A DNA stretch of 5,194 nucleotides from a virus. Taxonomy: Duplodnaviria; Heunggongvirae; Uroviricota; Caudoviricetes. The notes under the pieces are model-generated. The model saw only the letters and a list, made by a program, of their open reading frames with translations, was not told the origin of the DNA and did not search any database. A program made the position numbers and the translations under genes. The stretch's first letter is position 1; each line of letters begins with the position of its first letter. Positions 1-5,194 of this stretch are shown one piece after another. The DNA is taken from IMG/VR virus record IMGVR_UViG_2778261249_000009, positions 1 to 5,194 of that record, one strand, 5' to 3'.

Positions 1-192
1 TCAGGAGCATTTCTGATTAACGCCACCGTTAAGAATCCACCCTTCAACAGCTTCACGAAGGTATGATTTGGGGTGGGTTCTGACTGGCTTCGGAAATCCG
101 TGCCGTTTGGTATAGTTCCAGATTGTCTGACGTGATGAAACACCGAGCTTGTTCATCACTTCTTTCTCAGGAATCAGGCTGGTATCGGTCAT
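1..192 (-). CDS. xis: AlpA-family helix-turn-helix excisionase / phage transcriptional regulator (63 aa), complete
   Basis: ATG at 192-190 preceded by GGAG 7 nt upstream (minus strand); TGA stop at 3-1. Sequence LGVSSRQTIWNYTKRHGFPKPV...EAVEGWI matches the AlpA/excisionase pattern (HTH, conserved FPKP and W near the C-terminus). An integrase would be expected beyond position 1. Confidence 0.7.
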   Translation of the reverse strand: MTDTSLIPEKEVMNKLGVSSRQTIWNYTKRHGFPKPVRTHPKSYLREAVEGWILNGGVNQKCS

Positions 193-206
193 CTTAATTC
201 TCCAGG

Positions 207-233
207 CAAAAAGAAACCGCCATCAGGCGGCTT
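207..233 (-). terminator. Rho-independent terminator (minus strand)
   Basis: Minus strand reads AAG-CCGCC-TGAT-GGCGG-TTT followed by CTTTTTG: GC-rich 5 bp core stem (217-221 / 226-230), extendable to 8 bp, 4-nt loop, then U-tract 207-216. Sits between the small ORF stop and the xis RBS. Confidence 0.5.
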
Positions 234-390
234 GGTGTTCTTTCAGTTCTTCAATTCGAATATTGGTTACGTCTGCATGTGCTATCTGCGCCCACAGCAT
301 CCAGTGGTCATAGCAGTCGCTGATGTTCTCGGCTTCGATAACTCTGTTGAATGGTTCTCCATTCCATTCACCTGTGACTCGGAAGTGCAT
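223..390 (-). CDS. Hypothetical small protein, 55 aa (MHFRVTGEWNGEPFNRVIEAENISDCYDHWMLWAQIAHADVTNIRIEELKEHQAA); below the ORF-track length cutoff
   Basis: Hand-translated: ATG at 390-388 with GGAG 7 nt upstream; TGA stop at 225-223 falls in the loop of the downstream terminator hairpin. Protein-like composition (3 Trp, 4 His). No family recognised. Confidence 0.3.
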   Translation of the reverse strand: MHFRVTGEWNGEPFNRVIEAENISDCYDHWMLWAQIAHADVTNIRIEELKEHQAA

Positions 391-400
391 TTATCATCTC

Positions 401-428
401 CATAAAACAAAACTCGCCGTAGCGAGTT
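401..428 (-). terminator. Rho-independent terminator (minus strand) downstream of the DUF551 gene
   Basis: Perfect inverted repeat AACTCGC (411-417) / GCGAGTT (422-428) with 4-nt loop; on the minus strand the hairpin is followed by TTTTGTTTTAT (complement of 401-410). Confidence 0.45.
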
Positions 429-490
429 CAGATAAAAGAAATCCCCGCGAGTTCGAGGATTGTTATTCACCTTTGACGGCAAGTTGCAGG

Positions 491-1696
491 TTAGCCACGG
501 TTAACCTCCTGCGGCGGTTCTGGTAGTGGCATCCAGTGGGTTACACCGCCAATTGGTTCATCGTCGTCGTACTCCAATGCGGCTATATAGAACCCGTCAC
601 GACGAGAATAAGAAATCCCGGACATTACAATGCCATCCGAAACAACAATAATGTCACCCGTTTCTTCCGGCATTCGCTCACTACAGCTTATCCAACCATC
701 CGGAGTTACCGGAGTTGGTCCATCGAATTCGGGCATGTCAGGACCTTTTCTGATAGCTTTAGCCAGCTCCAGCGGGTCATCGTAAAGCCAGTCGCCAGTT
801 TGTGGGTGATTTGCTTCTGCAAGCTGCGCAGCCCATTCAAGACCATCTTTTTGACCTTGGAGATAATCAAGCGGCAACTCTTCATGATTACTTACAGGTT
901 GGCTACCCTGAAGCATGGCAGCGTGGCAGGCATACTCAACACCCTTAACTGCATCTGCGCAGTAGTTATAGCGATTGCATTCCACTAATTTCCGTTTGAG
1001 TTTTTCAATTGCCTGCGCGACATCAGCCTGTATTACAGGAACTGGCGGAACGGCTGTTTGCTCTCGAACGTCATTAGTCGCTATCGGTTCTGCTGCCAAC
1101 TGACTGGCATATTTGTTAATGGTAACGATAAGCTCTTGCTCAGCCTCATCCAGACAATCACCGATACCTCGCCTGTCACCGTCAAAATCATCGAAATCGG
1201 CACGAATCTTGGCAACCTTCAGGATTGCGGACAACACCTCACTAGGAATTACCGGATAGTTGGTTGACGTTTCCGCGATTTCCCGAAAATTATTGGTTGA
1301 CGAATTCTTATTTTCCCGAAAGTTTCCGGACTGAAGCATGGCGGCGCGGCAGGCGTTCCAGCCTCTTACCTCTGCAATAGCGGCAACCGCATCAACCGCG
1401 TACATGCTAAGAGGATTAGGAATTGGTTTTTCTTCCGGTACTACTGGCGCTGGAGGGGCGGCGTAAATGCCCTCTATCACTAAATGTTTGCGCTCAAAAT
1501 CATCTGGCTCTCGATGATATACGTAACTCCAGTCACCAAGGTTATCATTGCGCCTGCAACGGAAACCTATCGGCTCTGCTTCCAGCGATGCCAGCGCAAT
1601 TTCATAAGCCCGGCGTTCAATATTGTCTCGAACGTCCAGGCTGCTGATACGCTCTTTGATTTCTTTAATCAGTTCTTTGTCGGTGAAAGTGGTCAT
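491..1696 (-). CDS. DUF551 domain-containing phage protein (401 aa)
   Basis: Track ORF 491..1777 begins at a TTG. The preferred start is ATG 1696-1694 with AAGGAG 7 nt upstream, 1 nt after the upstream gene stop (TGATATG). C-terminus ...DGWISCSERMPEETGDIIVVSDG...GFYIAALEYDDDEPIGGVTHWMPLPEPP matches the DUF551 signature (THWMPLP) seen at C-termini of enterobacterial prophage proteins. Internal repeats noted separately. Confidence 0.75.
   Translation of the reverse strand: MTTFTDKELIKEIKERISSLDVRDNIERRAYEIALASLEAEPIGFRCRRNDNLGDWSYVYHREPDDFERKHLVIEGIYAAPPAPVVPEEKPIPNPLSMYAVDAVAAIAEVRGWNACRAAMLQSGNFRENKNSSTNNFREIAETSTNYPVIPSEVLSAILKVAKIRADFDDFDGDRRGIGDCLDEAEQELIVTINKYASQLAAEPIATNDVREQTAVPPVPVIQADVAQAIEKLKRKLVECNRYNYCADAVKGVEYACHAAMLQGSQPVSNHEELPLDYLQGQKDGLEWAAQLAEANHPQTGDWLYDDPLELAKAIRKGPDMPEFDGPTPVTPDGWISCSERMPEETGDIIVVSDGIVMSGISYSRRDGFYIAALEYDDDEPIGGVTHWMPLPEPPQEVNRG
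1260..1325. repeat. Tandem imperfect 33-bp direct repeat (2 units, about 25/33 identical) inside the DUF551 CDS
   Basis: Units 1260-1292 and 1293-1325 both begin TTGGTTGACG and contain TTTCCCGAAA; they encode NFRENKNSSTN / NFREIAETSTN on the minus strand. Confidence 0.6.
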
Positions 1697-1697
1697 A

Positions 1698-2309
1698 TCA
1701 CTCTCCTTTAATGCGAATGCCAGCGGCGCGTGGCACATTAACTTCCACGATGCGCACAGTTGGTTTGTACATCTCAATCGCTGTCAGCCAGTCAGCTCCT
1801 GTCATGCGCTTTTCCGCATCGCCATTAGTCCACTGAACCGGTACACCAATAGCCTTCATAGCGATTTCTATTTCCCCGGCAATGGCGCTTTTTCCGCAAC
1901 CAGTAAAACCAGATACAACGACCAGAACTTCACCTTTGGCTGGTTTTATTTCCCGCGCTTCCAGTTCAGCAATGCGCTTACTCCCATCCCAGATAACGCC
2001 CTCGTAATACTCACGCTGCTCGTTGAGTTTTGATTTTGCCAACTCCAGTTGTTTTGTTAGTTCCGCAATACGGCAAACATCGTTGATACGCGTTTCCTCT
2101 AATGCGTTGATCTCATCCAGTAGTGCCAGCACGGTTTCTGGTCCGGCCAGAAATTTGAAGGCGTTGAGGGCATCAATATCAACACCGCTATCTTTAAGTT
2201 CCTGTTCGCTTATCAGATCATCATCAACTGGCAACATTAACAGGCGTTCCATTGCCGGAATTGCACGCTCTGCCGCCTCACGCAGTGCCTGGTAATTAAT
2301 TTCGCTCAC
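1698..2309 (-). CDS. Ead/Ea22-like coiled-coil prophage protein (203 aa with GTG start; possibly shorter)
   Basis: Track ORF 1698..2501 is over-extended through the Lar gene. GTG at 2309-2307 has GGAGG 6 nt upstream and overlaps only the last 14 nt of lar; alternative ATG at 2252. N-terminus SEINYQALREAAERA followed by a heptad-rich coiled-coil segment resembles Ea22-like proteins as I recall them (unverified). The C-terminal segment VVVSGFTGCGKSAIAGEIEIAMKAIGV is unassigned. Confidence 0.55.
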   Translation of the reverse strand: MSEINYQALREAAERAIPAMERLLMLPVDDDLISEQELKDSGVDIDALNAFKFLAGPETVLALLDEINALEETRINDVCRIAELTKQLELAKSKLNEQREYYEGVIWDGSKRIAELEAREIKPAKGEVLVVVSGFTGCGKSAIAGEIEIAMKAIGVPVQWTNGDAEKRMTGADWLTAIEMYKPTVRIVEVNVPRAAGIRIKGE

Positions 2310-2529
2310 TGGTTGCCTCCTTTGCTCGCTGATTCCACTCAGCTCTAACCTCTGAATAAAAAATCGCGCAGTCATTTCCAGGCGCTGCATATTTGCTACC
2401 AGATTGAGCGCGACACGTACCGCATCGAACGAAATAGAATCTACCGCCAGAGCCATATTCAGGGTGATCTGCTTCACTGGCAACGTGCGCTGCGCCGCCA
2501 CAGAATGGACATGGTAGTAGGTTGCTCAT
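2296..2529 (-). CDS. lar: Lar-family restriction alleviation protein (77 aa, CxxC...CxxC zinc ribbon)
   Basis: ATG 2529-2527 with AAAGGAG 8 nt upstream; ATGA overlap with the upstream gene stop (2526-2529). CPFCGG at residues 7-12 and CGTC at 36-39, the Lar/RalR-family signature; stop TAA 2298-2296. Confidence 0.7.
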   Translation of the reverse strand: MSNLLPCPFCGGAAHVASEADHPEYGSGGRFYFVRCGTCRAQSGSKYAAPGNDCAIFYSEVRAEWNQRAKEATSERN

Positions 2530-3026
2530 GACTGCACTCCTTTGCGAAGCTGGGCGGCTAACTCGTCACATATGTGCGTCAAGGAGCAAAGTTTGATTGA
2601 TGGATGTTCGCGCATCATCTCAACCCCCTGCGCCCGCACTTCAGCAAGGAAAGCATCGGTGGCTGGGGTTTTAACACGGATGCTGTCGCGCAAGATGAAA
2701 AATGCATCAAGCATTCCAACCTCCGGCACTTCATCCTGATGCTTCTCATACGCATCAAGAGCCTTCATCATCTCAGGTCCGAACGGTTGAGGGTGTGCTG
2801 TCTTCAGCCCAGCATTCTCCGCTGCCAGCACCGAGCACTTGGCTTCAAGGTTGTCAATCGTTATTCCAGCAGAACGACACTCACGCAACGCCGTTTCCAG
2901 TTTTGATTCAAGCTCACCAAATTTACGCACCAGATATTCAGCGTTTGTTTCGTTAACCTTTAAATCACTTGGGATGCATTTACCTTTCAGAAATCCATCC
3001 ATCTCAATTAGTGTCATTTGTTTCAT
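2526..3026 (-). CDS. Hypothetical coiled-coil protein (166 aa from ATG 3026; 172 aa if GTG 3044 is used)
   Basis: Track ORF 2526..3044 starts at GTG. ATG 3026-3024 forms an ATGA overlap with the stop of the upstream 54-aa ORF, matching the coupling used elsewhere in the operon. N-terminal half is predicted coiled coil ([18 protein letters not shown]...). No family recognised. Confidence 0.55.
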
Positions 3027-3187
3027 TTCTTCCCACTCCGCCACATCGCATTCAGATATTTGTTTTGATTCACTGATGTAAAAGAATTTCTCTTAAGCAA
3101 TTCCTCTCTCGATGGCATTGGCTTTACGCGTTGGCGAATAATCATTTCTGCCGGAAGAATGCCGGGATTGTATGCAAGTCCTCTCAT
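3023..3187 (-). CDS. Hypothetical small protein, 54 aa ([54 protein letters not shown])
   Basis: C-terminal part of track ORF 3023..3340. ATG 3187-3185 with GAGG 8 nt upstream, 10 nt after the stop of the 98-aa gene; its TGA overlaps the next start (ATGA at 3023-3026). Basic, Lys/Arg-rich. Confidence 0.35.
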
Positions 3188-3197
3188 GGTAAATTCC

Positions 3198-3494
3198 TCA
3201 GTCATTACTGATAGCGCCATAGCGTGAGCGGTAATTACGCAGGCGCGGGTCGATATATTCAGGGAAGTGGGTATATGTGGCTTTGCGGAATGGTCGGATT
3301 GATGTCTGGTAAATTCGCTCGCGTTCTTCTTTCTCTGCAAGCCATACGCAGTGGCGAAATTCCTTTTCCTCTTTTGTTTCCTGCGGTAGCGACATTATCC
3401 GGTCGTAGTTTTTCCTGAATTTATCCAGCACCTCCGATACGGAATTGCCGGAACAGCGGCGCGGGTCATCCGCACCATACAGAGGCGCTGGCAT
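3198..3494 (-). CDS. Hypothetical protein, 98 aa
   Basis: ATG 3494-3492, 23 nt after the SSB-like gene stop, with a weak TAAGG upstream; fills the gap in the operon. No family recognised. Confidence 0.5.
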
Positions 3495-3517
3495 AATGGG
3501 AGCCTTATTTTCAATAA

Positions 3518-4105
3518 TCAGAAAGGAGGGTAATCGTTCTGGCTGTAACCATAATCATCTGCATGATTCTGGCTTACGTTTTTAGAGCGATTGTCTTTAT
3601 CTTTGAGGCTGGCAACCATGTTGGCGATAGTTTCTGGTTGCTTGCCTTCCGCCTTTTCTTTAAGGGTTTGACCTGTTTGTGCAATAAACGGGATGCGTAT
3701 TTCCATCTGGTAGCTGTCTGCGCCAGTCTTTTTGTTTGTGGTTAATACTTTCTGGAGCACTAACCCGATTTTCTTTCCATGAAACTCAGGAGCAACAAAT
3801 TTACTGGCGGAAACCATATGTTGCGTTAATTGTCCAATCCCGGCACACCCCATCATGGCGTGAACGACATTTGCGCCAAATTTGTTTTCCGTTCCGTCAT
3901 TTTTCTGAACACAGACGCTAAGATATTGGATTTTACGTCCGTCGTCAGATTCGCCAGAAAACTCAATAAATTTGGCTCCTTTTTCTGATTGCTTTAGTTC
4001 TGCTTCAGTAATGGTAATGATATGAGCACCAGTTTCGTTAATAAAACCACCTTGCCCTGCGGTCAGTGCTGCTTCTTCGTTATAAGTAAAAATCACGTTG
4101 CTCAT
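3518..4105 (-). CDS. Putative phage ssDNA-binding (SSB-like) protein partnered with the Sak4-like ATPase (195 aa)
   Basis: ATG 4105-4103 in ATGA overlap with the Sak4-like gene stop; TAAGGA RBS. Acidic C-terminal tail ending ...HADDYGYSQNDYPPF resembles the SSB C-terminal tip (acidic residues + terminal PF). Position immediately downstream of a Sak4-like ATPase matches the known Sak4 + cognate SSB arrangement (e.g. phage HK620). The OB fold is not verifiable by eye. Confidence 0.45.
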   Translation of the reverse strand: MSNVIFTYNEEAALTAGQGGFINETGAHIITITEAELKQSEKGAKFIEFSGESDDGRKIQYLSVCVQKNDGTENKFGANVVHAMMGCAGIGQLTQHMVSASKFVAPEFHGKKIGLVLQKVLTTNKKTGADSYQMEIRIPFIAQTGQTLKEKAEGKQPETIANMVASLKDKDNRSKNVSQNHADDYGYSQNDYPPF

Positions 4106-4782
4106 GCGGCGTTTTCCTTAATTTGATGAACATTATTGATGCCGTAGTAATCACAAACAGTGGCATCGACGAAAGAGAGATCGTTATCAATCTCATTAGA
4201 ATCAAACATTCCCATTGGGGATTTAACAGTGTCTGCACCGTTGTTTTTCGTGGTGAAAAAGAACTGGTCATCGCGGGTAAGGGTGCGAAGAACTATAGTA
4301 AACATGCCTTCGACAGTGATTTTCTCGTCCAGCATTTTGCCGATAGTCTTCATTTTCACACGCCCCATAGGGGTTTCTTCGGTGTGCGCAAGAAAATAGA
4401 CTCTCAGGTCATCAGGTGCATCCTGTGCAGCCTTAATCACCTCCCATGCGTGGCGGCCTATCTCAGTGAATTTATCAAACGATTTTTCTTCTGAGCGGCG
4501 CATAAACTCATTGCTCATCACATACTGGAAGTCATCAACAATAACGATTCTTTTCCCGTATTCGTGAGCACGCTTAATTACGGCAACTATTACGTCCCAT
4601 TTGTCAGTGGTAACTACGGTTCCTTTTTTTGCTCTGGCATCCCATGCCAGCCAGTCTTTTGATTTAAATGGAAGCGGCTTGCCTATTGGTTTTATAAGTA
4701 TTGCTTCCTCTGGATTGATATTTCTCATGCTGGTTGATTTTCCGGTGCCAGATTCACCGAGTATTAATGTCGCAGTTCCCAT
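4102..4782 (-). CDS. Sak4-like RecA-fold P-loop ATPase (AAA_24-type, putative single-strand annealing protein), 226 aa
   Basis: ATG 4782-4780 with GAGG 6 nt upstream. Walker A GESGTGKST at residues 9-17 and Walker B-like IVIVDD near residue 80; size and N-terminal P-loop placement fit short phage Sak4/AAA_24 proteins. Confidence 0.7.
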   Translation of the reverse strand: MGTATLILGESGTGKSTSMRNINPEEAILIKPIGKPLPFKSKDWLAWDARAKKGTVVTTDKWDVIVAVIKRAHEYGKRIVIVDDFQYVMSNEFMRRSEEKSFDKFTEIGRHAWEVIKAAQDAPDDLRVYFLAHTEETPMGRVKMKTIGKMLDEKITVEGMFTIVLRTLTRDDQFFFTTKNNGADTVKSPMGMFDSNEIDNDLSFVDATVCDYYGINNVHQIKENAA

Positions 4783-4790
4783 AATTTGCC

Positions 4791-4979
4791 TCAGAATGGT
4801 AATTCGGATGGGGAGGAAAGAAACTCACGCTCATTCATGCGCTCTCTTTGTGCCTGCCATAAGCAAAGTTGTTTCTTTGATTTATCTCCCGCTTTACGCC
4901 AGTAACGAGCCTCAGCAATGTGATATTCTCTTTTTAATCGACTTAACTCTGGAGTTTTCGCCAGTTCTACCGGAATCAT
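4791..4979 (-). CDS. Hypothetical small protein, 62 aa (start at second Met of the track ORF)
   Basis: Track ORF 4791..4991. GGAGG lies 5 nt upstream of ATG 4979-4977 and overlaps the first ATG (4991), so the second ATG is the better start; it also forms an ATGA overlap with the upstream ORF stop (4976-4979). Confidence 0.5.
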   Translation of the reverse strand: MIPVELAKTPELSRLKREYHIAEARYWRKAGDKSKKQLCLWQAQRERMNEREFLSSPSELPF

Positions 4980-5194
4980 TTTGACCTCCATTTTCTGTAG
5001 GCTTCTACGGCCTCACGAAACATCTTTTCATCGCCAATAAAAGTGGCGATAGTGAATTTAGTCTGAATAGCCATAAGTGTTTTATCCATTTTTTGGAACT
5101 CCTGGCTGATTAAGTACGTCGATAAGGCGTTTCCATCCGTCACGTAATTTACGGGTGATTCGTTCAAGTAAAGATTCGGAAGGGCAGCCAGCAA
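4976..5194 (-). CDS. Hypothetical protein, 5'-truncated at the window edge (or a 37-aa protein if it starts at ATG 5089)
   Basis: Frame is open from the window end (track M is a TTG at 5194-5192) to TGA 4978-4976. Internal ATG 5089-5087 has AGGAG 9 nt upstream, so an independent 37-aa product is possible. Confidence 0.4.
   Translation of the reverse strand: MLAALPNLYLNESPVNYVTDGNALSTYLISQEFQKMDKTLMAIQTKFTIATFIGDEKMFREAVEAYRKWRSK

Follow-up and report, generated by a model that had tools for sequence, protein, structure and literature searches.

Does the short, hairpin-rich stretch beside xis in a lambdoid phage sequence hold a real gene, or is it a structured spacer in which a reading frame has stayed open by chance? 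The question is raised by positions 205 to 430 of a 5,194-nucleotide viral sequence (IMG/VR record IMGVR_UViG_2778261249_000009, Caudoviricetes, positions 1 to 5,194), which is referred to here as the window. An earlier note made from the letters alone had pointed to a minus-strand open reading frame (ORF) of 55 amino acids between two terminator-like hairpins at this place and had left both options standing. The ORF is very probably a real homologue of orf55 of phage lambda, flanked by the counterparts of the lambda hairpins t3, t4 and t5 and located at mosaic junctions of lambdoid phage genomes.

The ORF was present as placed in the earlier note, with its GGAG ribosome-binding site and with all features within one or two bases (Table 1); its stop codon TGA runs from 225 to 223. 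The protein matched PHROG 676 over its full length (positions 1-55 of 55) with E = 5.5e-40 and shares 96% of its amino acids with the lambda orf55 product (lambdap35), while Pfam and NCBIfam contained no family for it. On the DNA level, positions 150-520 matched 353 phage records, and the segment from approx. 203 to 466 corresponds to lambda 29098-29361 at 95% identity. Within this segment, lambda 29118-29285 is annotated as lambdap35, a 'hypothetical protein' of 55 amino acids, and is the orf55 of the lambda literature. In HK140 (97.6% identity over 150-520), the coding sequence is annotated as gp31, 'similar to lambdap35'. The ORF had been called unlisted, which is true just of the list that was available to that reader, as it is annotated in lambda, HK140, HK630, HF4s and RefSeq genomes of E. 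coli. At least 80% of the orf55 module was found in 2174 out of 5426 complete E. coli genomes.

Thus, neither the gene nor its three hairpins are new: orf55/lambdap35 was known from lambda, t3-t5 were predicted in 2014 (PMC4195576), and HK140 carries an annotation. The finding is correct but ordinary and has little weight as a discovery. Its interest lies in the fact that lambda, the best-studied phage, carries a strongly conserved and uncharacterised gene of 55 amino acids that occurs in about 40% of the complete E. coli genomes, and that three predicted terminators stand directly before xis in lambda. For designing experiments on function and termination, the alignment of the family, its conserved residues and the naturally occurring deletion variants described below are useful.

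To compare the gene across phages and prophages, 118 loci were fetched, which gave 33 distinct DNA versions of orf55, three of them of a Klebsiella type with 73-75% protein identity. Conservation of the frame and synonymous substitution had been proposed as checks, and both came out in favour of a gene. The reading frame was intact in all 33 versions, and 18, 6 and 41 variable sites were counted at codon positions 1, 2 and 3, respectively. The ratio of nonsynonymous to synonymous substitution rates (dN/dS) was 0.12 in the comparison with lambda and 0.09-0.11 in that with the Klebsiella copies, with an overall range of 0.09-0.17. The pooled ratio of nonsynonymous to synonymous polymorphism (pN/pS) was 0.17 in the orf55 frame compared to 1.5-3.9 in four other frames. 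One antisense frame also reached a low value (0.18), but it is broken by a stop codon at 311-313; it mimics the signal of selection because it has its wobble positions in common with the orf55 frame. With this stop codon, and with a pN/pS of 1.47 for the plus-strand ORF 232-405, antisense coding was rejected. Judged from these substitution patterns, positions 223-390 are a genuine, conserved protein-coding gene under purifying selection and the counterpart of lambda orf55.

Relatives of orf55 were collected by an exhaustive HMMER search and a profile search, the latter yielding 153 relatives with 51-59 amino acids across the Enterobacterales. The distant ones (51-59 amino acids, 37-55% identity) were found in Yersinia, Citrobacter, Leclercia, Atlantibacter, Pantoea, Erwinia, Pectobacterium, Cedecea, Enterobacter and Proteus. 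Large repetitive proteins at the tail of the HMMER search (P0115, P0118 and P0119) were discarded as low-complexity or repeat artefacts. In an alignment of 52 family members, M1 and W9 were invariant, and F3, T6, N10, F14, E19, A20, E21, D25, H29 and A39 were at least 90% conserved. The window orf55 has the length of the PHROG 676 family and its pattern of W9, N10, F14, E19-A20-E21 and D25, and homologues down to 37% identity retain the length as well as the hydrophobic and acidic pattern. The Shine-Dalgarno sequence is GGAG in most loci; in eleven (L031, L041 and L069 types) it reads GGCG with the gene otherwise intact. Copies of orf55 at lambda-level identity were also seen in assemblies of Shewanella, Pseudomonas, Chromatium, Bradyrhizobium, Paenibacillus, Kitasatospora and others (L010-L025). 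These are almost certainly lambda DNA contamination; several of the contigs measure approx. 48.4-48.5 kb and several names show low coverage.

Three hairpins, named A, B and C in the order of transcription, surround the gene. All of them have the anatomy of intrinsic terminators, i.e. a GC-rich stem of at least 5 base pairs (bp), a loop of 3-8 nucleotides (nt) and an immediately following U-rich tract; they are oriented with the operon and have their U-tracts on the transcribed strand only. Two of them had been recognised in the earlier note and are indeed there, hairpin B abutting the ribosome-binding site; the third, hairpin A, had been missed. The claim that the TGA stop sits in a terminator loop holds for hairpin C: an 8-bp stem (226-233 / 214-221) encloses the 4-base loop UGAU with the stop codon and is followed by CUUUUUG, and its 5' arm codes for the last two Ala codons of orf55. 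In hairpin B, the stem 422-429 / 410-417 closes a UACG loop and is followed by UGUUUUAU, which continues into GGAG. The U-tract of hairpin A reads UCUUUUAUC. The folding energies, another check proposed earlier, amounted to -13.0 kcal/mol for hairpin C (z = -2.0) and -11.9 kcal/mol for hairpin B (z = -3.95), followed by -9.7 kcal/mol for hairpin A (z = -2.9). None out of 200 shuffled sequences was as stable as hairpin A or as hairpin B, and both were present in the minimum-energy and centroid folds of their 116-nt context. Throughout the window, 15 terminator-like sites were counted compared to 5.5 ± 2.2 in shuffles, and three of the five most G-C-paired ones fall at the orf55 module on the coding strand.

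Hairpins A, B and C correspond to lambda t3, t4 and t5, from which each differs by one or two substitutions; order and orientation are unchanged. The lambda hairpins were predicted with ARNold in the exo-xis region as t3 (…AATCCTCGCACTCGCGGGGATTTATTTTATCTG), t4 (…CTGAACTCGCTACGGCGGGTTTTGTTTTATG) and t5 (…AAGCCGCCTGATGGCGGTTTTTTCTTGCGTG) (Bloch et al. 2014, PMC4195576, Table 4). Hairpin A differs from t3 by a C-to-A change at the loop-closing pair, which leaves 8 bp and a 6-nt loop instead of 9 bp and a 4-nt loop. Hairpin B has a U-A pair where t4 has U-G, and the U-tract of hairpin C reads UUUCUUUUU compared to UUUUUU in t5. At the counterpart of hairpin C, the HK140 record annotates a rho-independent terminator. 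Among E. coli-type variants, hairpin C is identical with the exception of L101, in which a U-to-C change affects the outer end of the 3' arm. A Klebsiella version has a changed loop and one added codon and keeps the stem, the stop codon in the loop and the U-run. In one Klebsiella-type lineage (L006/L007, 3194-3322), hairpin C is degenerate and is followed by an ORF of 42 amino acids with a GGAGG ribosome-binding site and a zinc-ribbon-like CxxC…CxxC pattern, and then by a DUF1233-type xis. Hairpin A is replaced at the same position by unrelated GC-rich hairpins in some loci, with the same U-tract in the L041 type and a weaker T-run in the L069 type. In hairpin B, 96.9% of the cells were paired across 25 variants, with U-A/U-G alternation.

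The gene itself and its surroundings resemble lambda to different degrees. In both cases, orf55 encodes 55 amino acids, has the same ribosome-binding site and the same three hairpins, is the last accessory gene before xis and is uncharacterised in function. Upstream, the window has a DUF551/EaA gene and the stub of an ASCH-domain gene, in contrast to ea8.5 in lambda. Downstream, it has an AlpA-type xis, whereas lambda has Xis with the cII-dependent pI promoter; the cII site TTGC-N6-TTGC, which abuts t5 in lambda, is absent in the window.

Homology between phages stops right after the U-tract of hairpin C and gives way to several unrelated contexts, namely, the lambda cII-binding site with xis, an AlpA-type xis or other genes. 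It stops likewise at the 5' edge of hairpin A, where many unrelated upstream contexts follow, and both flanks are present without orf55 in many phages. Sf6 contains the upstream block including the ribosome-binding site, then the CxxC-containing gene 19, the last 52 nt of orf55 and hairpin C. In its record (NC_005344), the edge of the 'boundary sequence' bsq2 reaches the junction just downstream of hairpin C. In Sf6 and Stx2 phages, gene 19 lies between the two blocks. L075-type prophages carry the upstream block, a gene 19 homologue (2167-2463), a full orf55 and hairpin C. HK620 and P22-like Salmonella phages have kept approx. 65 nt of the orf55 3' end with hairpin C, beside the pI promoter and the cII site. 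Both flanks are thus short conserved blocks next to non-homologous genes in different phages. In this they are like the intergenic boundary sequences ('bsq') of Sf6, which mark mosaic junctions, and agree with the model that explains lambdoid mosaicism by conserved boundary sequences (Clark et al. 2001 for HK620, as cited in PMC3029335). The hairpin-containing linkers are such conserved boundaries, at which lambdoid phages repeatedly swapped, inserted or deleted genes. Since these blocks are made up of terminator hairpins and include a ribosome-binding site, gene expression may contribute to their conservation alongside recombination.

Two further observations concern gene 19. A gene of approx. 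100 amino acids with CxxC (Sf6 gene 19, L003, 2572-2883; similar to 933W L0063) uses the upstream hairpin and ribosome-binding-site block of orf55; it either stands before orf55 or has taken the place of everything except the last 52 nt. At the Sf6 junction of gene 19 and the orf55 remnant, there is an AGA microhomology.

The position of the gene in its operon was considered next to its boundaries. The window covers leftward early genes of a lambdoid prophage, with its long ORFs all on the minus strand. Each family member that was examined lies in the early-left operon of such a prophage. In E. coli and Klebsiella, orf55 is found beside xis/int together with three unrelated xis types (AlpA, Exc and DUF1233), and in some E. 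coli prophages it directly follows another gene. In Citrobacter-like and Proteus prophages, a relative is situated between the repressor and kilR/gamL/recT. Distant relatives in L113-L116 and L118 (37-55% identity) were observed at the promoter-proximal end of the early-left operon and not beside xis. Among annotated relatives, HK140 comes closest to this end of the window. Its leftward operon starts in a pL region that has an N-like antiterminator as well as nut boxA sites, and ends in an AlpA-type xis, which is the last gene of the operon since int is convergent with it.

A scan for sigma-70-like promoters revealed none in 200-500. Before orf55 there is no room for one either, because the U-tract of hairpin B abuts the Shine-Dalgarno sequence. 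With no promoter between hairpins and gene, orf55 can only be reached by a polymerase that passes hairpins A and B, and xis additionally requires the passage of hairpin C because its own Shine-Dalgarno sequence starts four bases after the U-tract of C. The lambda pL operon is known for the intrinsic terminators tL1, tL2 and tL3, which are read through only by N-modified polymerase and so give rise to delayed-early timing. Hairpins A, B and C are situated much further downstream, directly in front of xis, and are not known to belong to the classically mapped tL terminators. In lambda, tL3 lies just after exo, as described for pKD46; the HK620 record places tL3 elsewhere. The possibility that the present site is tL3 was followed up in the literature, which mostly gave cloning-vector uses and synthetic TL3S terminators and not this site. 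The prophage small RNA HnrS was discarded as well, as it is located in late genes and not at the orf55 locus.

We propose that the orf55 module forms the final accessory cassette in the pL operon, the leftward early operon of a lambdoid prophage. Ordinary RNA polymerase would stop at hairpins A, B and C, and only polymerase made terminator-resistant at nut by an N-type antiterminator would read through from pL, in the way N-modified polymerase reads through intrinsic terminators in lambda. Under these conditions, orf55 and xis would be made only on induction or infection, and the triple gate would keep stray transcription in the lysogen from yielding excision factor. Such gating of orf55 and xis is considered fairly probable, with actual termination and antitermination-dependent expression inferred by analogy with lambda. 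The term insulated, which had been applied to the gene, does not stand in the sense of an autonomous unit: there are three hairpins and no promoter of its own, and the bracket is not intrinsic to the gene family. It should be read as gated by antitermination. In addition, hairpin C may be a translation-sensitive terminator, as it would be covered by a ribosome that follows the polymerase closely and completes orf55. If true, expression of xis would be coupled to the translation of orf55 as well as to antitermination.

Several points weigh against a translated, terminator-gated orf55. The gene is dispensable because phages such as Sf6 and HK620 have lost it. No direct evidence of its translation was found, and a secondary source names just the orf60a-ea22 block as confirmed. 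The hairpin bracket is absent around distant family members, and the Yersinia relatives, two genes before int, overlap their neighbours and have no hairpins. The terminator bracket is a property of linkers of the lambda/E. coli type and not of the gene family. Nor does the window contain the antiterminator, whose presence is expected from HK140 and general lambda biology. Concerning the hairpins, the U-tracts are interrupted by C or G, the stems are moderate in strength and several singleton variants break one pair of hairpin B. In the covariation analysis, 93.8% of the cells were paired over 25 variants, which is not above shuffles, with one double change; the test was uninformative because the variant sequences are too similar. 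The literature found on t3, t4 and t5 gave in silico predictions, and neither mapped 3' ends nor measurements of termination.

Among the other explanations, the one closest to the earlier note's second option takes the frame as untranslated and the region as a structured non-coding spacer that is conserved for its RNA or DNA. The note had put the chance of an open frame of 55 codons in random sequence at roughly 7%, and the arithmetic is right ((61/64)^55 = 0.071). This is high enough to be compatible with a spacer, although on its own the figure proves nothing either way, given 56 ORFs of 30 or more amino acids in the window. The missing Pfam or NCBIfam family and the lack of direct evidence for translation would fit a spacer as well. 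It is contradicted by the strong substitution bias at third positions with a dN/dS of approx. 0.1, by the length and conserved residue pattern kept in homologues down to 37% identity and by a confidently predicted fold. Moreover, the interior of orf55 has no notable RNA structure (z = -0.56 for 185-300), and Rfam gave nothing in 200-500 at E ≤ 1. The spacer is effectively refuted by this comparison and can be regarded as excluded for practical purposes, so that of the two options in the earlier note the coding one stands. A real gene could still be a moron, i.e. an autonomous unit of promoter, gene and terminator that is expressed from the prophage in lysogens and benefits the host. The small size of the gene, its own terminator, its presence or absence between otherwise similar neighbours in related phages and its very wide distribution in E. 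coli prophages are all in line with this. A moron would need its own promoter, however, and no sigma-70 match was obtained in or just upstream of the cassette, where the U-tract of hairpin B leaves no space for one. Two terminators lie directly upstream, and orf55 is co-oriented with and embedded in the repressed pL operon, which makes a moron highly unlikely.

The hairpins, in turn, could mainly be recombination linkers or relics, boundary sequences retained by phage recombination in which termination is incidental. The clustering of homology breakpoints at the hairpin edges, the reach of the Sf6 boundary sequence to the junction just downstream of hairpin C and the many deletion relics (the ASCH stub in the window and the 3' stubs of orf55 in Sf6, HK620 and P22-like phages) speak for this. 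So do the lack of covariation support for structure and the singleton variants that break a pair of hairpin B. On the other hand, each of the three hairpins shows every structural element of an intrinsic terminator, points in the direction of the operon and has its U-tract on the transcribed strand only. Where hairpin A was replaced, it was again by GC-rich hairpins at the same position, one type with the same U-tract, and a Klebsiella copy of hairpin C is altered in sequence, yet has kept its hairpin and U-run. Incidental termination is rather unlikely as the principal explanation. The linker and terminator roles are not exclusive, and the linker explanation differs from the terminator-gated orf55 proposed here in emphasis only.

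What the protein does was approached from its predicted structure and from the literature. An AlphaFold2 model, calculated from the 52-sequence alignment, predicts a beta-beta-alpha-beta topology with a mean predicted local distance difference test score (pLDDT) of 92.9. With ten Asp/Glu and four Arg/Lys residues, counted from the sequence, Orf55 is acidic. PADLOC gave no anti-phage defence match for it. The segment from orf73 to orf55 has been implicated in blocking the initiation of host replication, the 'bin' phenotype (Sergueev et al. 2002, as cited), and lambda orf55 has the status 'not tested' in a lambda essentiality screen by CRISPR interference. Due to the acidic composition and the early-operon position, a stoichiometric binder or inhibitor is favoured: as a guess about its class, Orf55 most probably binds a macromolecule of the host or of a competitor at an early stage of lytic growth. 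More specifically, it may be an early inhibitor of a host machine, e.g. RNA polymerase (as modelled), a defence or a replication protein, which would fit the 'bin' phenotype. This proposal and the translation-sensitive hairpin C could hold together; that one or both of them apply is a long shot.

A particular candidate for such an inhibitor was put forward by Donaldson and colleagues (PMC8614690), who speculatively modelled Orf55 as an RNA polymerase modulator similar to T7 Gp2. It would bind the beta-prime jaw and sigma-70 region 1.1 and would be delivered early in the lytic cycle. Besides the AlphaFold/RoseTTAFold model and docking published there, the model calculated here predicts the same beta-beta-alpha-beta fold, and Orf55 is acidic like Gp2. 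The weak Foldseek matches include several models of phage 'RNA polymerase inhibitors', one of them at 32% identity, and hhalign gave a register of 28 columns that places F3, T6, F14, A20 and E21 of Orf55 on conserved Gp2 residues. This alignment with 21 Gp2 members reached only P = 0.039 and a probability of 1.3%, though, and Foldseek returned no viral match at E ≤ 0.001. None of the 52 members of the orf55 family matched PF16857 of Pfam even at E ≤ 10, and Gp2 was not among the profile matches to the PDB at E ≤ 10. Altogether, T7 Gp2 (PF16857; PDB 2WNM, 2LMC and 4LLG) has no significant sequence or profile similarity to Orf55, and other folds match better. The residues R56 and R58 of Gp2 are required for binding and inhibition of RNA polymerase (PMC8614690). 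The invariant R56 aligns with N43 of Orf55, and the likewise invariant R58 with R45, a residue conserved just within the E. coli/Klebsiella clade. Furthermore, a lambdoid phage relies on the host polymerase through its entire cycle, unlike T7. Homology to Gp2 was not supported by Pfam, the PDB profile search or hhalign, and because these sequence tests failed, Orf55 was not assigned to the Gp2 family; a Gp2-like mode of action is considered improbable.

Table 1. Features at the orf55 locus and its neighbours (positions in the window).
Feature	Position	Strand	Remarks
xis-type gene (AlpA family)	1..192	minus	immediately 3' of hairpin C
Hairpin C + U-tract	205..233	minus	lambda t5 counterpart; holds orf55 stop
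orf55 homologue, 55 amino acids	223..390	minus	ATG at 390->388; PHROG 676; lambdap35 homologue, NP_597778
Shine-Dalgarno sequence GGAG	398..401 (401->398)	minus	seven bases before orf55 ATG
Hairpin B + U-tract	401..429	minus	lambda t4 counterpart; abuts orf55 ribosome-binding site
Hairpin A + U-tract	431..461 (hairpin 440-461)	minus	lambda t3 counterpart; after upstream gene
ASCH-gene remnant, 11 codons	462..497	minus	GTG start, MANLQLAVKGE, TAA; between DUF551 gene and hairpin A
EaA-like protein, C-terminal DUF551 domain	491..1777	minus	PF04448, E = 8.5e-15; upstream gene

The genes next to the module were assigned with different certainty. The xis-type gene matched Pfam Phage_AlpA weakly (E = 0.0032, under the curated cut-off), and the HK140 record lists its counterpart as an AlpA family regulatory protein. 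The 11-codon stub that follows the DUF551 gene and precedes hairpin A has kept a GGAGG Shine-Dalgarno sequence; its start overlaps the DUF551 stop and its own stop is located 2 nt before hairpin A. A full gene of 94-100 amino acids with the same first 11 codons is present in L080, L077, L099 and L108, where hairpin A follows directly after its end. HF4s and APC_JM3.2 carry an ASCH-domain annotation for this gene, which is situated between the DUF551 gene and orf55. On sequence grounds, the stub is the 5' end of this ASCH-domain gene joined to the last bases of the same gene through an internal deletion. A leader peptide or translation-coupled attenuator at this place was ruled out because the stub is a remnant of a gene that is present as a whole in related loci. 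A second type of mini-ORF (MAKAAAERN or MAKSAAERN) is probably a similar stub, and a gene of 112 amino acids in one locus begins with MAKSATE.

Further upstream, a P-loop protein of 226 amino acids (4102-4782, minus strand) is annotated in related phages as Sak4-like single-stranded DNA annealing or ATP-binding protein. In PADLOC, it showed weak matches to mad8 (E = 2.3e-5) and PDC-S19 (E = 0.0015), which probably reflect the shared P-loop alone. At the far end of the window, the Rfam model of the lambda cIII thermoregulator matched 5177-5194 on the minus strand with 21.6 bits compared to a cut-off of 50 bits (E = 0.17), the match being cut by the window end. The ORF 4976-5194 lies beside it, and its C-terminal part resembles lambda Kil. 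Because of this sub-threshold match and the Kil-like ORF at its end, the window appears to span the region from xis to about kil/cIII.

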